This document shows, piece by piece, positions 20,334 through 27,669 of a stretch of DNA of 64,000 nt. The notes under the pieces are model-generated. The model had not been told where the DNA came from and did not search any database. It worked only from the letters and a program-made list of their open reading frames with translations. The stretch spans positions 72,858-136,857 of the forward strand of contig JBHJGN010000022.1 in NCBI GenBank assembly GCA_050331735.1. The letters are read 5' to 3'. A program made the translations under genes and the position numbers. How positions within the stretch are numbered: the stretch's first letter is position 1; each line of letters opens with the position of its first letter. The stretch is from Cyanophyceae cyanobacterium (GTDB taxonomy: Bacteria; Cyanobacteriota; Cyanobacteriia; Cyanobacteriales; JBHJGN01).

Positions 20334-23300
20334 GTGGCTAAAAGAAGGCGGCGAGGAGTAGTACTGACTCCTGAAGGACTAGACAAGTTTCAGTCTGCCA
20401 GACTGAAATCTGAATCAGAACACAACTACGGCGAACGCTACACTTACGAGAAGTTGAGCGAAATTACCTATTTAGATATCCACACTATTAAAAGAGTCCT
20501 GGATTGTCAAGAAGGAGTAGACAAGCGGACCCTCGAACGACTGTATATTAGCTTTGAGCTAGAACTCACCGAAGACTGCTACACCCAACCCAACCCCCAT
20601 CGGCGGAGAAGCTGGGGCGAAGCGATGTGCGTCGCTACTTTTTACGGGCGGACTGGGGAGCTATCTATTTTAGAAGGGTGGCTCCTCAAAGACCGCTGCC
20701 GAATCGTCACGCTATTAGGCATGGGGGGAGTCGGCAAAACCTGTTTGTCGGTGAAGCTGGCGAGACAGGTTCAGGAACGGTACGATTTGGTGTACTGGTG
20801 TAGTTTGAGAGATGCTCCGCCGGTAGAAGAAGTGCTCATAAATGCTGTCGAGTTTCTCTCCGATGAGAAAGAAACAGCCGCAGATTTACCAGATAGCCTC
20901 AAGGGCAAGATTTCGCGGCTGATCGAGTATCTGCGGGAATCGCGCTGTTTGCTGGTGCTAGACAATATGGAGTCGATGCTCTGTAGCGGCAAACGAGCCG
21001 GACAGTTTCGCGAGGGGTATGAAGGGTATGGAGAGCTACTGCGGCGTCTTGGTGAAACCGAGCACCAGAGTAACATTCTGCTGACCTCAAGAGAAAAACC
21101 GAAGCAGGTGGCCTTTCTAGAGGGAGAGGAACTGCCTGTGCGGACTTTCCGGGTTGGCGGCTTAGCCGAGGAAGCCGGAGAGGAACTGCTCAAGCTCAAG
21201 GGATTGTCGGGAACTGAGCCAGAGTATAGAGCTTTGATCGAGCACTACGGCGGCAATCCTCTCGCCTTGAAGGTGGTGGCGACGACGATTCGCGATCTGT
21301 TTGCCGGAGATATTGGTGACTTTTTAGCCCACGAAACGGCGGTTTTTGGAGATATCCGTGACCTGTTGGATCAGCAGTTCGAGCGGCTTTCGGATGTTGA
21401 GAAGGAGATTGTCTACTGGCTGGCCATTAATCGGGAGTCGTCGACCATTGCCGATGTACAGGAAGATATGGTTTCGGCTGTTCCTAAACAGTCTTTGCTA
21501 GAGGGGTTGGAGTCGCTATCGCGGCGGTCTTTGGTAGAGCGGGATGCCTCGCGGTTTACGCTGCAAAACGTGGTCATGGAGTACGTGATTAACTGTTTTG
21601 TGGAGCGGGTTTGCCAGGAGATTGTTTCTTTGCAGCTCAAGTTATTTCGCTATCATGCGGTGATTAAAGCGACAGCGAAGGACTACGTGAGGGAAACCCA
21701 AACGCGGCTGGTGCTTCAGCCAATTCTGGATGGGTTAACGGTTTTTTTTAAGTGTAAGCAGAACGTAGAGGGGGGGCTGAATAAGGTTTTATCTCTGTTG
21801 CGAGAGGGTCCGCCCTTGGAGATGGGGTATGCCGGGGGGAATGTGTTGAATTTGCTATGCCATTTAGGGACAGATCTGACAGGCTATGATTTTTCTAATT
21901 TGGCCGTGTGGCAGGCGGATTTGCGGTGTGTTTGTTTGCATGACGTGAATTTCCAGAATGCGGATTTATCTAAGTCAGCGTTTGCCGAGGCATTTGGTGG
22001 GATTTGGTCAGTGGCTTTTAGCCCTGATGGGACGATTTTGGCTGTGGGAGATACTAAAGGCGAGATTCTTTTACGACAAGTAGAAAACGGTCGGCCAATT
22101 TGTAGCTTCAAAGGACACAATGGTTGGGTAGTCTCCCTGGCTTTTAGTCCTAATAGTAATACTTTGGCAAGTAGTAGCTGTGACTGTACAGCCAAGCTAT
22201 GGGATATTAACACTGGTCAATGCCTTCATACTTTAAAAGAACATACACAAGAAGTCTGGTCTGTGCTCTTTAGTCCCGATAGTAAAACTTTAGTAAGTGG
22301 GTGTGATGATAACAAAGTAAGACTATGGGATGTATCTACAGGCAAATGTTTCAAGGTTTTCCAGGGACATACAGATTGTGTGCTTTCGGTAGTCTTTAAT
22401 TTAGATGGACGAGAAATACTAAGCGGAAGCCACGATAATACAATTAGGCTCTGGGATATTGAGAGTGGGAAGTGCAAAAAAACTTTTCATGGGCACGATG
22501 ATGGAGTACGATCTCTTGCTGTTAGTTCAGACGGTCAAACTTTTGCCAGTAGTAGTAACGATTGCACGATTAGACTTTGGAATATACAAACGGGTGAATG
22601 CCTCAAAGTTTTTCAGGGGCACACTAATGTAGTATTATCTGTCGATCTTTGCTTGCAGAGCAGTCTTCTAGCTAGTAGCAGTATCGACCAAACAGTAAGA
22701 CTGTGGGATGTTGGCACAGGGGAATGTCTAAAAGTTTTTCACGGGCACTCTAATTACGTTAACTCAGTCGATTTTAGCCCGCAGAACAATTTTTTAGCTA
22801 GTGGTAGTCACGATCAGACAGTGCGACTGTGGAATACTAAGACTTATCAATGCTTTAAAACTTTTCAGGGACACAACAGTCAAGCTCTTTCAGTTGTTTT
22901 CAGTCCAGATGGTCAGATGCTAGCCAGTGGCGGACACGACCAAAAGGTAAGGCTGTGGGATATTGGTATTGATCGAGCTATTAAAACACTTCACGAACAT
23001 ACCAATTGGGTTTGGTCAGTAGCTTTTAGCCCTCAAGGTAATCTTTTAGTTAGTGGTAGTGGTGACAGAACTGTAAGATTGTGGAATGTCAGTACGGGAA
23101 AGGCCATCAAAATATTTCAGGGTCATCAGGCTGTAGTTCGCTCAGTTGCTTTTAGTTCTGACAATTGTACCCTAGCCAGTGGTAGCGAAGATAAAACAAT
23201 TAGACTCTGGGATATTAATACTAGTCAGACTTTAGGAGTTTTGCAGGGACATCAAGCTGAAATCTGGTCAATAGCCTTCAGTCCCGATGGCCAAATGTTG

Positions 23301-23870
23301 GCAAGTAGTTCCTTAGACGGAACGGCAAAGCTATGGGATGTCCATACTGGTAGCTGTCTTAAAACTTTGGAAGGACACACAGCTTGGGTTTGGTCAGTAG
23401 CTTTTTGTCCAGATAACAAAACTTTAGCAACTACTAGCCCAGATCAAACTTTAAGACTTTGGGATGTTGGTACTGGTGAGTGCAAAACAATTTTGCATGA
23501 GGATATAGGGTATTCACAGTTAGTTGCTTTTAGTAAAGATGGCCGGATAATAGCTAGCTGCAACCACAATCACAACATTAGATTGTGGAAGGTTAATACT
23601 AAAGAATGCTTCAAGGTATTGCCGGGTCATAAAGCTTTGATCAATTCGATTGCATTTTGTCCTGACAATTACACTCTGGTTAGTAGCAGTGAAGATGAAA
23701 CAATCAAATTCTGGAATATCAGAAGTGGAGACTGTATTAAAACTTTGAAGATTGAGAAACCTTACGAAGATATGAATCTTATGGGAGTTACTGGTTTAAC
23801 TGAAGCAGCCATAGATTCGCTCAAAGAACTCGGAGCAATTAGCAGCTTGCCAGATATAAGTTCGAAATAG
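20334..23870 (+). CDS. HTH / NB-ARC (STAND NTPase) / WD40-repeat protein
   Basis: N-terminal XRE-like HTH, GMGGVGKT Walker A, LLVLDN Walker B, LTSRE, GNPLAL, short pentapeptide-like stretch, 14 WD40 repeats. Confidence 0.92.
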   Translation: MAKRRRRGVVLTPEGLDKFQSARLKSESEHNYGERYTYEKLSEITYLDIHTIKRVLDCQEGVDKRTLERLYISFELELTEDCYTQPNPHRRRSWGEAMCVATFYGRTGELSILEGWLLKDRCRIVTLLGMGGVGKTCLSVKLARQVQERYDLVYWCSLRDAPPVEEVLINAVEFLSDEKETAADLPDSLKGKISRLIEYLRESRCLLVLDNMESMLCSGKRAGQFREGYEGYGELLRRLGETEHQSNILLTSREKPKQVAFLEGEELPVRTFRVGGLAEEAGEELLKLKGLSGTEPEYRALIEHYGGNPLALKVVATTIRDLFAGDIGDFLAHETAVFGDIRDLLDQQFERLSDVEKEIVYWLAINRESSTIADVQEDMVSAVPKQSLLEGLESLSRRSLVERDASRFTLQNVVMEYVINCFVERVCQEIVSLQLKLFRYHAVIKATAKDYVRETQTRLVLQPILDGLTVFFKCKQNVEGGLNKVLSLLREGPPLEMGYAGGNVLNLLCHLGTDLTGYDFSNLAVWQADLRCVCLHDVNFQNADLSKSAFAEAFGGIWSVAFSPDGTILAVGDTKGEILLRQVENGRPICSFKGHNGWVVSLAFSPNSNTLASSSCDCTAKLWDINTGQCLHTLKEHTQEVWSVLFSPDSKTLVSGCDDNKVRLWDVSTGKCFKVFQGHTDCVLSVVFNLDGREILSGSHDNTIRLWDIESGKCKKTFHGHDDGVRSLAVSSDGQTFASSSNDCTIRLWNIQTGECLKVFQGHTNVVLSVDLCLQSSLLASSSIDQTVRLWDVGTGECLKVFHGHSNYVNSVDFSPQNNFLASGSHDQTVRLWNTKTYQCFKTFQGHNSQALSVVFSPDGQMLASGGHDQKVRLWDIGIDRAIKTLHEHTNWVWSVAFSPQGNLLVSGSGDRTVRLWNVSTGKAIKIFQGHQAVVRSVAFSSDNCTLASGSEDKTIRLWDINTSQTLGVLQGHQAEIWSIAFSPDGQMLASSSLDGTAKLWDVHTGSCLKTLEGHTAWVWSVAFCPDNKTLATTSPDQTLRLWDVGTGECKTILHEDIGYSQLVAFSKDGRIIASCNHNHNIRLWKVNTKECFKVLPGHKALINSIAFCPDNYTLVSSSEDETIKFWNIRSGDCIKTLKIEKPYEDMNLMGVTGLTEAAIDSLKELGAISSLPDISSK

Positions 23871-23912
23871 AGGTTGCAAATTAACAAGATAAGCAAATTA
23901 CAATAGGATTAA

Positions 23913-23936
23913 GAGCAGATTCTGTAATACCTGCTC
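23913..23936. terminator. Possible bidirectional hairpin between convergent units
   Basis: GAGCAG-N12-CTGCTC in an AT-rich context. Confidence 0.35.
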
Positions 23937-23990
23937 TCAATTGTTTGGTTTTTATTACTACGTTACCTGGTTAAGTGTAGTCAAATCTAC

Positions 23991-24134
23991 TCAAAAATAG
24001 CAGACAATGTCACTGGTTAGGTCTTGTTTAAACTCCTCAATTAAGATATCTGCGAGTTCAATTTTAAGTTCTAACTCGTTTAAGACTTCAAAGCTGTTTT
24101 CAACGTGCTTGATTTCTGTAGCTGTAGTAATCAT
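23991..24134 (-). CDS. 47-aa acidic small protein, candidate precursor peptide
   Basis: AAAGGAG RBS upstream of ATG; hand translation MITTATEIKHVENSFEVLNELELKIELADILIEEFKQDLTSDIVCYF*; co-oriented directly downstream of the heme-oxygenase-like gene. Confidence 0.7.
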   Translation of the reverse strand: MITTATEIKHVENSFEVLNELELKIELADILIEEFKQDLTSDIVCYF

Positions 24135-24251
24135 TGCAAAATTCTCCTTTGGGTTAATTCAGAAAGTAAATTTAAGATTGCTTGAGACCGAATATCTGTT
24201 TTATTCGGATGAGGGTGTAATCGCGTAATGCGCACAACGAGCGTACTTCGC

Positions 24252-25220
24252 CTACAGGCTTTTCTCTAAATTCAGCGGATTCAATCTCTGCTGAATTTCT
24301 TCATCTGAGATGTAGCTTTCAGTTGGCGGACTAAAACACAACAGTGCCGTTTCATAACAGGCTCGCGCTACACGATCGCGCTCTTTGGCAGAAAGCTCTG
24401 CTACCATTGCAACTGTCTCTTCTACGTGTTCTGCATCAGCACCAACACTACTGTGTACGCGCAGGCAGCGGGTAGTATGTACGTTAGCAGGTAGCAAATC
24501 CTCTACCTTTTGGATGTACTCCTCGCTAATGCCCATCGCTAGGCGTTCCATCGTATAGGAATAACCCACACTATCAATTGGGTCATCATCCTGTACGCTA
24601 CGAGTAAAGTAGTCCATCAAAGCTACCGCAGCAGGAGGGACGAGTGCTTTCACTACTGCTTCGGCATCGTATCCCAGGGCTTGAATATCGCGGAGAGCAA
24701 GCAGATCGTGTCCGGCTTCCTCTTGAGCCTTTTCTCTGGCCCACTGTGCCAGTGTAGAGCGACCAGTTAGCGCAAACCGTCGAGCCGCTTTTTGCAACGA
24801 TGCTGGAACAGAGTGAGTTAAATGATAAGAACCAGCTAAGCGCCATACCCAGCGCGTTGCTGTCAACGCAGGGGGTCTCACATCTGAATTTACTGCATAC
24901 TTAGCCGCCGCGATCGCCCCATCTAACAGTTGACGAGTAGTTGCTACACTTCCGGCCTTTTCCATTGGCTGAGACAGATACAGCAGAGAAGGACTTAGCG
25001 GCGGGGTGTTTGCATCTATCTGAAGCAGCCATGCTCGCTCAGCAGAGGCAACAACAACTTTGTTGGGTGCAATCTTCGCCCATTCTACATCAGGAGAATT
25101 AGCGTAATGGGTCGAGAAACCCTCTCTATCGAGTTGAGATGCATTGGTTTTATCCAGAGTGAAGGAGACACTCGGATCTCTTTCCCGCTTGTGAGCAGGA
25201 TGGTTCTGATTAAAGTTCAT
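24252..25220 (-). CDS. Heme-oxygenase-like (HDO/PqqC-like) diiron-type protein, ligand set intact
   Basis: Predominantly helical; EEAGHD, YTME and RVHSSVGADAEH match the E..H / E / H..D..H pattern. Confidence 0.7.
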   Translation of the reverse strand: MNFNQNHPAHKRERDPSVSFTLDKTNASQLDREGFSTHYANSPDVEWAKIAPNKVVVASAERAWLLQIDANTPPLSPSLLYLSQPMEKAGSVATTRQLLDGAIAAAKYAVNSDVRPPALTATRWVWRLAGSYHLTHSVPASLQKAARRFALTGRSTLAQWAREKAQEEAGHDLLALRDIQALGYDAEAVVKALVPPAAVALMDYFTRSVQDDDPIDSVGYSYTMERLAMGISEEYIQKVEDLLPANVHTTRCLRVHSSVGADAEHVEETVAMVAELSAKERDRVARACYETALLCFSPPTESYISDEEIQQRLNPLNLEKSL

Positions 25221-25292
25221 AATTCACTTAGAAATTAAATACGCAGTGGAATTGAAATCGGCATGGCTAACCTTACTAGTGAGAACCTTCGC

Positions 25293-25312
25293 GTTTTGTT
25301 GGCAGACAAAAC
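25293..25312. promoter_or_regulatory. 20-bp pseudo-palindromic site, copy 1
   Basis: GTTTTGT-TGGCAG-ACAAAAC, 73 bp from the start codon at 25220. Confidence 0.75.
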
Positions 25313-25499
25313 GATTCCCCATCAGGAATAACCATTACCATTGACTCTTTTGCAACCAGGCTTAATTATTTAAGACTGTCAAAAGAGTTTGGTAAACACT
25401 CTGCCCAAACGGGCATAGCTTTACCTAACGACCAACTAGCAGGCTAGCTGGCTTTGGCGATCGCGTTACACTGGCAGGCATAACGTTTTTCAACCAAAT

Positions 25500-26408
25500 C
25501 TACGAATTCAGCGTTTTGAGGATGAGCTGAATTTCAAAATCTGAGACAATATGCTGTCGAGAACGGTTAAAACACAACAGCGCCGTTTCATAGCAGGCTT
25601 TCGCCACACAGGTCCGTTCAGCAGCCGTCAGTCCTGCAACCATCTCAACGGTTTCTTGAACATCTTCACAATCAATGCCCACGCTTCCGTGCAGCCACGG
25701 GCGACTAGCCGCAGCAGGATTGGGCGGCAGCAGTCCTTCGACAAGCTGGATATACTCTACACCAATTCCGGTGGCAATCCGCTCAATGGTATAAGAATAG
25801 CCCACACAGTCAATCGGATTACGGCTTTGGACCCCGAGAGCCAAATAATTGAGCAAATTATCGGCTTGAGCGGGATGCAATGCTGAGATAACGGCTTCGG
25901 CATCGTAGCCTAAGCACTGAATATCTCGTAAAGCCGCTCCATTGTAATCCTTTTCCCGACTCGCTTTCTGTCTGGCCCAGGTGGCTAAAGACGAGCGATG
26001 AGTACTTGCAAAGCGGTGCGCCGCTTCTGCCATTAATGTCGGTGTTAGGCACGTCAGATGGTAGTGTCCGGCTAGTCGCCAAATCCAGCGCGCCAGCGTT
26101 AAATCCGGCAGGATCACGTAAGAATATCGCTGGTAGGCAGCGGCGATCGCACCATCTAAAAGACTCTGCGTTGAAGCCACACTCCCACTCATGTCCGCCA
26201 TCGGTTGAGCAAAACGGTCTGAATCGCTCGAACCGTGGGGATAGAGCCAAACACTACTGGCCGTTGCAACTACTAGAGTTTCTGGTGAAAGTCGTGCCCA
26301 TTGAGTGTCAAGGGAATTAGCAAGACGCGCCCGAGGAGTCGCTGCTACCGGTGCAAAGAAGATCCGACTCGGGTCTTCTGGTCCGGCTCGATAGTCGTCA
26401 TTGTTCAT
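25500..26408 (-). CDS. Paralogous heme-oxygenase-like protein with degenerate metal ligands
   Basis: Shares LLDGAIAAA, RWxWRLAG, ALRDIQxLGYDAEAV, GYSYTxER and ACYETALLCF with 24252..25220; EEAGH becomes REKDY and DAEH becomes DCED. Confidence 0.7.
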   Translation of the reverse strand: MNNDDYRAGPEDPSRIFFAPVAATPRARLANSLDTQWARLSPETLVVATASSVWLYPHGSSDSDRFAQPMADMSGSVASTQSLLDGAIAAAYQRYSYVILPDLTLARWIWRLAGHYHLTCLTPTLMAEAAHRFASTHRSSLATWARQKASREKDYNGAALRDIQCLGYDAEAVISALHPAQADNLLNYLALGVQSRNPIDCVGYSYTIERIATGIGVEYIQLVEGLLPPNPAAASRPWLHGSVGIDCEDVQETVEMVAGLTAAERTCVAKACYETALLCFNRSRQHIVSDFEIQLILKTLNS

Positions 26409-26480
26409 CGTTATTGACCCAAGAATTCAATACGCTCTATGAGGAGATGCCAGGAACCGAAGCTAACTTAAAGTGGACTC

Positions 26481-26500
26481 GTTTTGTTGGCAGACAAAAC
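26481..26500. promoter_or_regulatory. 20-bp pseudo-palindromic site, copy 2
   Basis: Identical to copy 1, again 73 bp from the start codon (26408). Confidence 0.75.
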
Positions 26501-26503
26501 CGC

Positions 26504-26854
26504 TTAAGTTAACGACGTTTCTAGCTTGGCTTCTACCCATTCTTCGATGAGTTGAGAAAGCACCAACCGCATTGGCACTTGCTCTTGCGTACAGAGGACT
26601 TTAAGCTGGACCTTGAGAGACGGAGGCACGTAGGCACTAATCGTTTCTACGTTGGTCTCCAGGGAGGACTCAGCCTTCTTCAGGGCTGGTTTCTCAGCTT
26701 GAAGCCAGTTCCTCAGCAGTTGCTCTAGAATCACGCTCATATTTAATTCGTGTTGAGCGCAGAGAATCTTAAACTGAAGTTTAAGACGACTAGGAACAGT
26801 GGCTTTGACGACAACGCTTTTTTCTCTGTTGTGATACTTCACTGTTGGTGACAA
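26504..26854 (-). CDS. Tandem ribbon-helix-helix (ParG/CopG-like) DNA-binding protein
   Basis: Two internal repeats: VKATVPSRLKLQFKILC...LLRNWL and ISAYVPPSLKVQLKVLC...LIEEWV. Confidence 0.75.
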   Translation of the reverse strand: MSPTVKYHNREKSVVVKATVPSRLKLQFKILCAQHELNMSVILEQLLRNWLQAEKPALKKAESSLETNVETISAYVPPSLKVQLKVLCTQEQVPMRLVLSQLIEEWVEAKLETSLT

Positions 26855-27110
26855 AAGAATAGAGTGTGAACGTTACTAATTACTATTCAGCACCTTCATC
26901 ATTTTCACCAGGGAAGTTTTGGGAGATAACTAAAAAAGTTGACGCGGGGTGCGGCTGGTGTGTTTGCTAATTTCAACAAGCCAACTGATATCGTTGACGC
27001 CACCCTGTTTTTCAGCTACACTAGAAAAAATTAAGTTCGTAAAAAACTTAAGAATTAAATACGCTTTGTGTCGGGGGCAAACGTCACCTTAGCAATCTCG
27101 GTTGAATCAA

Positions 27111-27130
27111 GTTTTGTTGGCAGACAAAAC
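27111..27130. promoter_or_regulatory. 20-bp pseudo-palindromic site, copy 3
   Basis: Identical GTTTTGTTGGCAGACAAAAC upstream of the RHH gene. Confidence 0.7.
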
Positions 27131-27669
27131 TTTTCTGAGTCTGTGCTGGCGGTTGTCTCCTTTTTTATGGGCGGGTACTGCCCAGAGGGGTAAATAACTG
27201 GCAGTAGCTGGTCGGTAACGGCAACTTTCAATCCCGGCAGAAGACCGACGGGGATCGTGCAATTTGTTAGGTAGCAAAGTGATAAAGGGATAATCTACAC
27301 TTACTACTTTTATTTGTTTTAGCCGTTTTAGGCCAGTGAAGTTAAGGAAGTTAAAAAACAGTGCTGCCGGATGAAGGGAAAAAGCAACTTGTTCAATCGC
27401 TCTCAAGGATTTATGAAAAGCCTTAGCAGAGCAGCAACGGTTTGACAAATAATCTTTAGCAAAGAAAGGTCTGTTCACCCTGATGGCAATCTTGGCTATA
27501 GATGGGCAATCGTACAGCCTTTCGTTTAAGCTATCTAGCTATGCTAGCACAAGCAAGAGCGGTTTGGCGTCTCTGTTTGGGTTTGTTACAGGATGAGGAA
27601 ATTCTCGACCGCGATTAAGACGACGCACAGATAGGGTTAAGCATGAAAGGTTTCAGTCCCGTTAGCCAT

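Follow-up and report, generated by a model that had tools for sequence, protein, structure and literature searches.

What does a heme-oxygenase-like dimetal oxidase (HDO) do beside a gene for a peptide of only 47 amino acids, and which of the surrounding genes belong to the same system? The question is raised by a locus in a 64,000-nucleotide stretch of a Cyanophyceae cyanobacterium genome (contig JBHJGN010000022.1, positions 72,858 to 136,857); the whole stretch is called the window here. A preliminary description had proposed a module of four co-oriented minus-strand genes, namely a tandem ribbon-helix-helix (RHH) gene, a degenerate and an intact HDO-like gene (HDO1 and HDO2) and the peptide gene, with a triplicated 20-bp site. 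It read the module as a RiPP-like (ribosomally made peptide with post-translational modification) or signal-generating system facing an NLR-like receptor gene. The list of open reading frames (ORFs) bears out the four genes and their coordinates (Table 1), but the unit conserved among genomes is a different one: the HDO gene and the peptide gene, usually accompanied by the NLR-like gene. On balance we favour a minimal RiPP-like system with an HDO as maturase, coupled to a regulator or sensor of the STAND class. Synteny, the peptide's layout and the RiPP context in which relatives of the enzyme lie all support the RiPP-like core of this interpretation, whereas the four-gene unit was not upheld.

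The HDO gene and its peptide neighbour

Database searches with HDO2 returned 677 homologues at E≤0.001; among the 120 listed, all named ones were cyanobacterial, mostly from Pleurocapsales and Nostocales. The family comprised 469 representatives in all, of which 126 were cluster representatives at E≤1e-30, and the distant members had hypothetical protein names or none and came without taxa. The gene was present in one of 40 genomes of the same order and in three of 400 genomes sampled evenly from the phylum. Stanieria PCC 7437, Chlorogloeopsis fritschii PCC 6912 and Fischerella PCC 9431 are among the strains that carry the cassette. For comparison we used 77 related loci, 76 from a scan of species genomes and one (L007) from a relative. 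A profile hidden Markov model (HMM) of the small ORFs that come after the HDO gene found a match in 73 of them (74 of 78 with the window), always directly 3' of the HDO gene, so that a short precursor-like gene beside a putative modifying enzyme is the common state. Among the four loci without a match, two contigs stop at the HDO gene, one has 497 nt left, and in L007 a diverged ORF follows the HDO gene and ends in a similar motif, DGLDLDSILDREF.... The short ORF was thus real and linked to HDO, as had been supposed. Of the synteny expected around HDO homologues, the peptide and the NLR-like gene were conserved, whereas the RHH gene was directly upstream of HDO in only eight of 76 loci and lay beyond the NLR-like gene or elsewhere in six more. 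A degenerate HDO paralogue was found in four other loci and the 20-bp site in only six. We consider the RHH gene, the degenerate HDO and the site to be accessories of a sublineage.

The family alignment gave the peptide consensus M.TT.T.IK..E..LE.LN...IE.DLE.IL.EEF.QGL.SDI.N.., which is dominated by a conserved amphipathic acidic helix. E24, L27, E34 and D42 were near-invariant and the last four to six residues were variable. Tandem peptide genes, from two to three or four per HDO gene, occurred in nine loci (L015, L020, L023, L024, L025, L033, L034, L037 and L041), and within L015, L020, L034, L037 and L041 the copies differed in their tails. A conserved leader-like part, a variable core-like part and multiple precursor-like genes, as in RiPP systems, were therefore all present. 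In two Pleurocapsales groups the differences at codon positions 1/2/3 numbered 39/23/62 and 39/38/76, and with this third-position bias the ORF looks coding. The window gene is a single copy in its genome and is preceded by the strong ribosome-binding site noted earlier (AAAGGAG, 8-9 nt 5' of the ATG). Its product matched no Pfam, NHLP (nitrile hydratase leader peptide) or Nif11 model. The 67 database proteins that matched the peptide family were hypothetical wherever named, and none carried a Pfam family.

Several features of individual loci concern the peptide genes. The interval from the stop of HDO2 to the start of the peptide gene contains a 7-bp hairpin, CCGAAUA-AAACAGA-UAUUCGG (24170-24200, minus strand), which could set the expression ratio of enzyme and peptide. 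In one Nostocales/Hapalosiphonaceae group (L073-L076, L078, L079, L081 and L083, e.g. L083:8956-9222) the peptide ORFs share a hydrophobic N-terminal extension, M.FRILD.G.SILV.LG.G, which looks like a signal or membrane segment, and their tail is SDTEFxxM-like. L037 (8001-12021) and L041 (8001-11774) contain two facing HDO genes with 3+3 peptide genes between them, the NLR-like gene upstream and an RHH gene about 3.5 kb away. In L024 (9862-12648), inserted transposases (DDE_3, ISAZ013-type) separate the peptide array from two further peptide copies; that genome has its NLR orthologue (76% identity) on a different contig.

HDO2, its degenerate paralogue and distant relatives

HDO2 matched PF14518 with 36.8 bits (cut-off 28.9), and HDO1, with 51% identity to HDO2, matched no Pfam family. 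The AlphaFold2 (AF2) model of HDO2 (pLDDT 73.6) has three strands at residues 46-67 and two helices ahead of a helical core. Foldseek matched this model to 3dde (E 1.5e-4), UndA, CADD and HrmI with probability 1.00, and also to TenA and PqqC, so the predicted fold of HDO2 is the heme-oxygenase-like helical fold. A profile match to 3dde in the PDB (E 5.7e-14) brought the EExGH, ER and H..D..H motifs into alignment. E168, H171, E225, H256, D262 and H265 of HDO2 were conserved across the family, in an ExxH, E, H, DxxH pattern common to 3dde, and we take these six carboxylate and His residues to be the metal ligands. The contrast between an intact and a degenerate HDO was confirmed, since HDO2 has the full set and HDO1 has lost two of the six (H171Y and H265D). 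E168, H171, E225, H256 and H265 were kept in all single copies and all downstream copies, and position 262 was D in every aligned row except L043 (E).

A ligand-deficient upstream HDO paralogue was found in the window and in L009, L010, L011 and L014, with H171Y, with H265D or H265N (L011 keeps His265) and mostly with H256Y as well. Because ligand-substituted upstream copies recur in these loci, we conclude that HDO1 has been maintained as a paralogue and is not in decay. HDO1 also retains the N-terminal beta-rich domain. Five pieces of the HDO N-terminal domain had no Pfam match at E up to 10, and in the structural Atlas the domain matched only one unnamed cluster of 457 members (TM 0.71). 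Fused or longer HDO forms were not found, which is weak evidence.

A metagenome scan with a single distant family member, P0354, yielded three loci (L087, L088 and L089) in which the enzyme gene adjoins RiPP precursors in every case. The homologue in L089 shares 39% identity with HDO2 along 229 aa (E 6e-51) and matched PF14518 with 33.9 bits. In L089 (244-12024) it is preceded by genes for a C39-peptidase ABC exporter, a second ABC protein, an extracytoplasmic-function (ECF) sigma factor and an anti-sigma/Nif11-like protein. It is followed by an NHLP precursor (TIGR03793, 95.2 bits vs 50.9), a second degenerate precursor, a fused cyclodehydratase of the thiazole/oxazole-modified microcin (TOMM) type (TIGR03604, 286 bits) and a ThcOx-type dehydrogenase. 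The homologue is thus an apparent tailoring enzyme of a TOMM/NHLP cluster. In L088 (448-1546) an NHLP leader cut by the contig end (39.6 bits) comes after the homologue, and in L087 (1-1126) two ORFs that look NHLP-like by eye do so. The precursor cores at the three loci are also short and hydrophobic-ended. A leader protease and exporter were seen only in the distant L089 cluster; none recurred in the nine related loci scanned.

A different relation between enzyme and peptide has to be weighed here. The peptide could be a small partner (inhibitor, adaptor or chaperone) of HDO or of the NLR-like protein, while HDO oxidises a metabolite and the product or the peptide feeds the STAND switch. The fold matches of known chemistry (UndA, CADD, HrmI, TenA and PqqC) all use small molecules, a single conserved amphipathic acidic helix dominates the peptide, the scanned loci contain no protease or exporter, and the search for families like the RiPP recognition element (RRE) was negative; all of this would suit such a partner. 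However, near-identical tandem copies with variable tails typify precursors rather than stoichiometric subunits, and the relatives with 39% identity adjoin NHLP precursors in RiPP clusters. We therefore regard the small partner as unlikely.

The HDO family of O2-activating enzymes is growing fast, and to our knowledge all members that have been characterised act on free small molecules. The cassette enzyme resembles UndA, CADD, HrmI, BesC and SznF (PF14518) in its helical fold, its Pfam match and its ExxH/E/H/DxxH residues. It differs from them in its link with a ribosomal peptide, in its extra N-terminal beta-rich domain and in having a ligand-deficient paralogue in one lineage. A possible likeness to the multinuclear non-heme iron-dependent oxidases (MNIO; DUF692, e.g. 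MbnBC and TglHI) lies in the use of a non-heme iron/O2 enzyme with a non-catalytic partner on a short precursor. It is an analogy only: the MNIO fold is a TIM barrel, to which the HDO fold is unrelated. PMC9060507 places MbnBC in a RiPP pathway. Compared with the NHLP/TOMM clusters in which the HDO homologues with 39% identity lie, the window peptide lacks an NHLP or Nif11 match and a GG motif, and the window locus lacks YcaO, dehydrogenase and exporter genes.

In the openly accessible full-text literature searched, we found no paper on an HDO with a ribosomal peptide as substrate or on an HDO-peptide cassette, and none that reports an HDO in TOMM/NHLP clusters. The cassette is rare and apparently undescribed. 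If a clade of HDOs is tied to ribosomal peptides, RiPP biosynthesis would gain a new maturase family. This tie takes two forms, one minimal with two genes and one inside TOMM/NHLP clusters, and the minimal form, with one enzyme and one 47-aa peptide, should be easily testable.

The NLR-like neighbour and the proposed mechanism

The protein encoded opposite the cassette has the P-loop NB-ARC and C-terminal repeat sensor of STAND or NLR-like proteins. NB-ARC was matched with 58.9 bits (cut-off 23.5), Pfam marked 14 WD40 stretches, and Walker A (GMGGVGKT) and Walker B (LLVLD) could be read from the translation. Residues 1-100 form a small helical domain in the AF2 model (pLDDT 79). Its best fold matches were all helix-turn-helix (HTH) domains of the XRE/Cro type, including C.Esp1396I, HipB and a phage repressor, but they were weak (E 0.1-0.5, probability 0.85-0.97). 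The best PDB profile match of the N-terminus, the LacI headpiece, was also weak (E 0.3), and there was no Pfam match. Because the fold and profile matches are weak, we grade an HTH at the N-terminus as likely, not as proven.

Orthologues in the related loci share 51-73% identity over the first 522 aa across orders. When an orthologue was defined by >50% identity over >400 aa and counted in the 64 loci that have ≥4.5 kb of sequence downstream of HDO, it was convergent to the cassette in 49 and upstream in two more. The NLR-like gene reported to face the cassette is therefore a conserved neighbour, and the synteny of HDO, peptide and NLR-like gene spans several orders. Five cassette genomes without an adjacent NLR-like gene were tested, and all five carry an orthologue elsewhere (54-76% identity), aligning from residue 2-3 and in one case from residue 39. 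In a tree, built only in a quick version, unlinked NLR proteins lay near the base on long branches (0.51-1.05 vs a median of 0.12). By eye, no motif was common to the NLR and HDO upstream regions of 15 loci. At L064:13208-16786, L070:13183-16689 and L083:13350-16838, the cassette-linked NLR-like gene has another HTH/NB-ARC/WD40 paralogue (46-49% identity) directly upstream.

The minimal RiPP-like system that we favour might work as follows. The 47-aa ORF would encode the precursor, with the acidic helix as its leader and the segment from the near-invariant Asp to the variable tail as the part to be modified. HDO2 would oxidise this peptide with O2. HDO1, which keeps the beta-rich domain, is probably a non-catalytic partner that could, for example, hold the substrate. 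The HTH/NB-ARC/WD40 protein is probably a nucleotide-driven switch that regulates the cassette or uses the WD40 propellers to sense its product. In the window sublineage, the tandem RHH protein and the 20-bp site, a 7-6-7 inverted repeat at a fixed distance from the HDO genes, may add a layer of local control.

Several observations weigh against this interpretation. Only three loci provide the RiPP context; all belong to one distant subfamily, and two are on short contigs. Among 52 proteins (51 from nine loci and one from the window), no protease, exporter or further RiPP enzyme recurred, in agreement with the earlier remark that the module itself holds neither a protease nor an exporter. Neither a signal nor a double-glycine motif can be recognised in the peptide, and the beta-rich domain of the HDOs matched no known leader-binding (RRE) family. 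In a Nostoc group of four loci the changes in the peptide were mostly non-synonymous (45 vs 6). By the criterion of 50% identity, an adjacent NLR-like gene is missing in 13 of the 64 loci, among them L048 with a weaker match of 44%. The NLR link is also not exclusive: homologues without HDO exist in G013 (53% identity), G010 and G004, and no peptide ORF was found near them. Moreover, the 20-bp site lies about 45 nt upstream of a putative -10 box, which is unusual for a repressor operator.

The NLR-like protein could instead be the centre of a conflict or defence system, a kind known from multicellular bacteria, in which the STAND protein senses an invader and HDO with the peptide is the effector or trigger, for example a toxic peptide. 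The architecture of NB-ARC with WD40 would fit, as would the patchy distribution (the three of 400 phylum genomes and one of 40 relatives) and the location of the cassette on plasmids in Scytonema sp. HK-05 (L041) and Chlorogloeopsis fritschii PCC 6912 (L074). One passage in PMC7159879 lists HTH domains among the effector-module domains of NTP-dependent conflict systems. In a term search of PMC7159879 and PMC8195603, neither heme oxygenase nor PqqC nor TenA came up. However, PADLOC reported no defence model except for the WD40 part (candidate model HEAT-ARM_XIII), the unusually strong conservation of the protein (51-73% identity over the first 522 aa across orders) gives no hint that the sensor has diversified, the N-terminal domain is DNA-binding-like and not enzymatic, and HDO with the peptide is also found away from the NLR-like gene. 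We consider a defence role improbable.

In the same way, the protein resembles Avs and bNACHT in its P-loop NB-ARC and repeat sensor but has no enzymatic effector and no PADLOC model. It is like the STAND regulators MalT, AfsR/SARP and LAL in combining an NB-ARC switch and a repeat sensor with an N-terminal domain that is probably of DNA-binding type, and differs from them by its likely XRE-type HTH with a WD40 sensor; the AfsR model gave 12.2 bits against a cut-off of 1430. Through the steady pairing, the cassette becomes a concrete candidate for the input of a bacterial NLR-like protein that is not obviously a phage sensor.

A bolder version of the RiPP-like reading, which we hold to be a rather long shot though still worth stating, is that the HDO-modified peptide is a self-made ligand of the WD40 sensor, to which the NLR-like switch answers by transcription. 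If true, the signal read by a bacterial NLR-like switch would be an endogenous peptide matured by an enzyme, and the peptide could pass between cells of filamentous or baeocyte-forming cyanobacteria without a dedicated exporter. The enzyme would also be the first HDO with a ribosomal peptide as its substrate, and it might attack the C-terminal residue by an UndA-like oxidation.

The RHH gene and the 20-bp site

Table 1. Features of the HDO-peptide locus (positions in the window)
Feature	Position	Strand	Remarks
RHH gene	26504-26854	minus	116 aa, tandem ribbon-helix-helix, TTG start
HDO1 (HDO-like, degenerate)	25500-26408	minus	302 aa
HDO2 (intact HDO)	24252-25220	minus	322 aa
Precursor-like peptide ORF	23991-24134	minus	47 aa; tail IVCYF; near-invariant Asp42
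XRE-like HTH/NB-ARC/14x WD40 STAND (NLR-like) gene	20334-23870	plus	1178 aa; convergent to cassette
20-bp site, copy 1	25293-25312	minus	72 nt 5' of HDO2 start
20-bp site, copy 2	26481-26500	minus	72 nt 5' of HDO1 start; 3 nt past RHH stop
20-bp site, copy 3	27111-27130	minus	~255 nt 5' of RHH start
Second shared box at HDO2, GCGTATTTAATTTCTAAGTG	25225-25244	minus	ends 4 nt 5' of HDO2 ATG
Second shared box at HDO1	26416-26435	minus	from three-way upstream alignment
Second shared box, RHH-upstream copy	27045-27064	minus	followed by ACGAAC instead of ATGAAC

The tandem RHH assignment was substantiated by a match to PF21432 (56B_RHH; 35.7 bits, cut-off 27.2), by a second repeat visible in the sequence and by ParG-type matches in the second half of the orthologues, which are 45-62% identical. 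The exact triplicate of the 20-bp site was confirmed as well. The 20-mer, GTTTTGTCTGCCAACAAAAC, is a 7-6-7 inverted repeat present in three exact copies in gene orientation. No further copy was found at ≤3 mismatches in the window (shuffles expect 0.00) or at ≤2 mismatches in the 5.57-Mb genome. Copies at ≤4 mismatches occur in L008, L009, L010, L014, L024 and L030, and among the other loci those at ≤3 mismatches are confined to these six. The window and the six loci together hold 28 instances, and in all seven the RHH gene is directly upstream of HDO. From this co-occurrence among related loci, the site is a candidate operator of the RHH protein. Like CopG, Arc, ParG and omega, the protein belongs to the RHH fold family and has an inverted repeat before its own and neighbouring genes. 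It differs from these repressors in carrying two repeats in one chain, and its site has an asymmetric invariant centre, a fixed orientation and compensatory changes. In L016, with a more distant RHH protein, a different 7-6-7 repeat is found (ATCAGAA-ATAGGT-TTCTGAT), and L048, also with a more distant RHH protein, has a close partial copy of it, so that protein and site look as if they had changed together.

Both HDO start codons lie exactly 72 nt past their site. A three-way upstream alignment revealed a second box, GCGTATT(T/G)AATT..., 45-48 nt past each site. Because its GTATTTAA is shared with a conserved block before Nostocales HDO genes, this box may be a -10 element, in which case the site would sit upstream of the promoter. 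The block in the Nostocales alignment is promoter-like and comes without a copy of the 20-bp site. In the region 23700-27400, a sigma-70 scan gave 6 matches (4.1 in shuffles) and a terminator scan 5 (3.6 in shuffles), and neither a promoter nor a terminator could be placed at the sites.

The pattern of changes within the site suggests another reading, in which it is an RNA stem-loop or DNA hairpin with the loop CUGCCA and not a double-stranded operator of the RHH protein. The centre CTGCCA was invariant over the 28 instances, and four of the seven arm pairs had changed on both sides (6 cells, a count reached in none of 500 shuffles). Arm cells were paired in 93.8% of cases, vs 38-58% with the partner slid. 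Differing compensated variants occur inside a single locus (L014 and L009), single changes are mostly G-U-compatible on the sense strand (10 cells), and the orientation of the site is always that of the gene. In view of the compensatory changes and the invariant centre, a hairpin of RNA or single-stranded DNA fits at least as well as a protein operator. However, the stem is short and AU-rich, and RNA folds of four leader or intergenic regions did not surpass shuffles in stability (z -0.7 to +0.15). RHH proteins bind DNA and the site co-occurs with the RHH gene, the alternative repeat of L016 resembles protein-operator co-evolution, and some instances are non-independent through tandem duplication. 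On this evidence we give the hairpin somewhat less than an even chance. In either case the element, with its invariant centre, covarying stem and restriction to this locus, makes a compact system, whose reader could be the RHH protein, the XRE-type HTH or an RNA-level factor.

The adjacency could also be incidental and the triplicated site a functionless relic of local tandem duplication. The copy upstream of the RHH gene reads ACGAAC where the HDO genes read ATGAAC, about 190 nt 5' of the RHH start, and this dead start codon would suit a relic, as would the tandem duplication of site and 5' gene fragments in L009. However, the exact 20-mer is kept where the proteins are only 50-63% identical, L024 keeps the same dead-start arrangement before its RHH gene (with ATCAAC), and HDO, peptide and NLR-like gene stay together across several orders. 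We regard a relic as highly improbable. Tandem duplications of about 430 bp, consisting of a site, an HDO 5' fragment and a second site, are present at L009:4218-5163 and L008:2181-3018, and L008 has five sites between the RHH gene and its single HDO gene.

Near the RHH genes that lie beyond the NLR-like gene (L037, L041, L059, L074, L075 and L078), 7-6-7 repeats were generic palindromes only. Long perfect palindromes, (T)GTAGAGACGCG-N6-CGCGTCTCTAC(A), are found between the RHH and NLR-like genes at L059:~14905 and L078:~13510, in two Nostoc loci, and look like a generic cyanobacterial repeat. The window module has a GC content of 0.39-0.49 and its flanks have one of about 0.50-0.56, a difference too weak to call horizontal transfer. 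A 123-aa ORF at 27107-27478 (minus strand), whose 3' end overlaps copy 3 of the site, matched no family and probably does not represent a gene, in which case 26855-27130 would form a long leader in front of the RHH gene.

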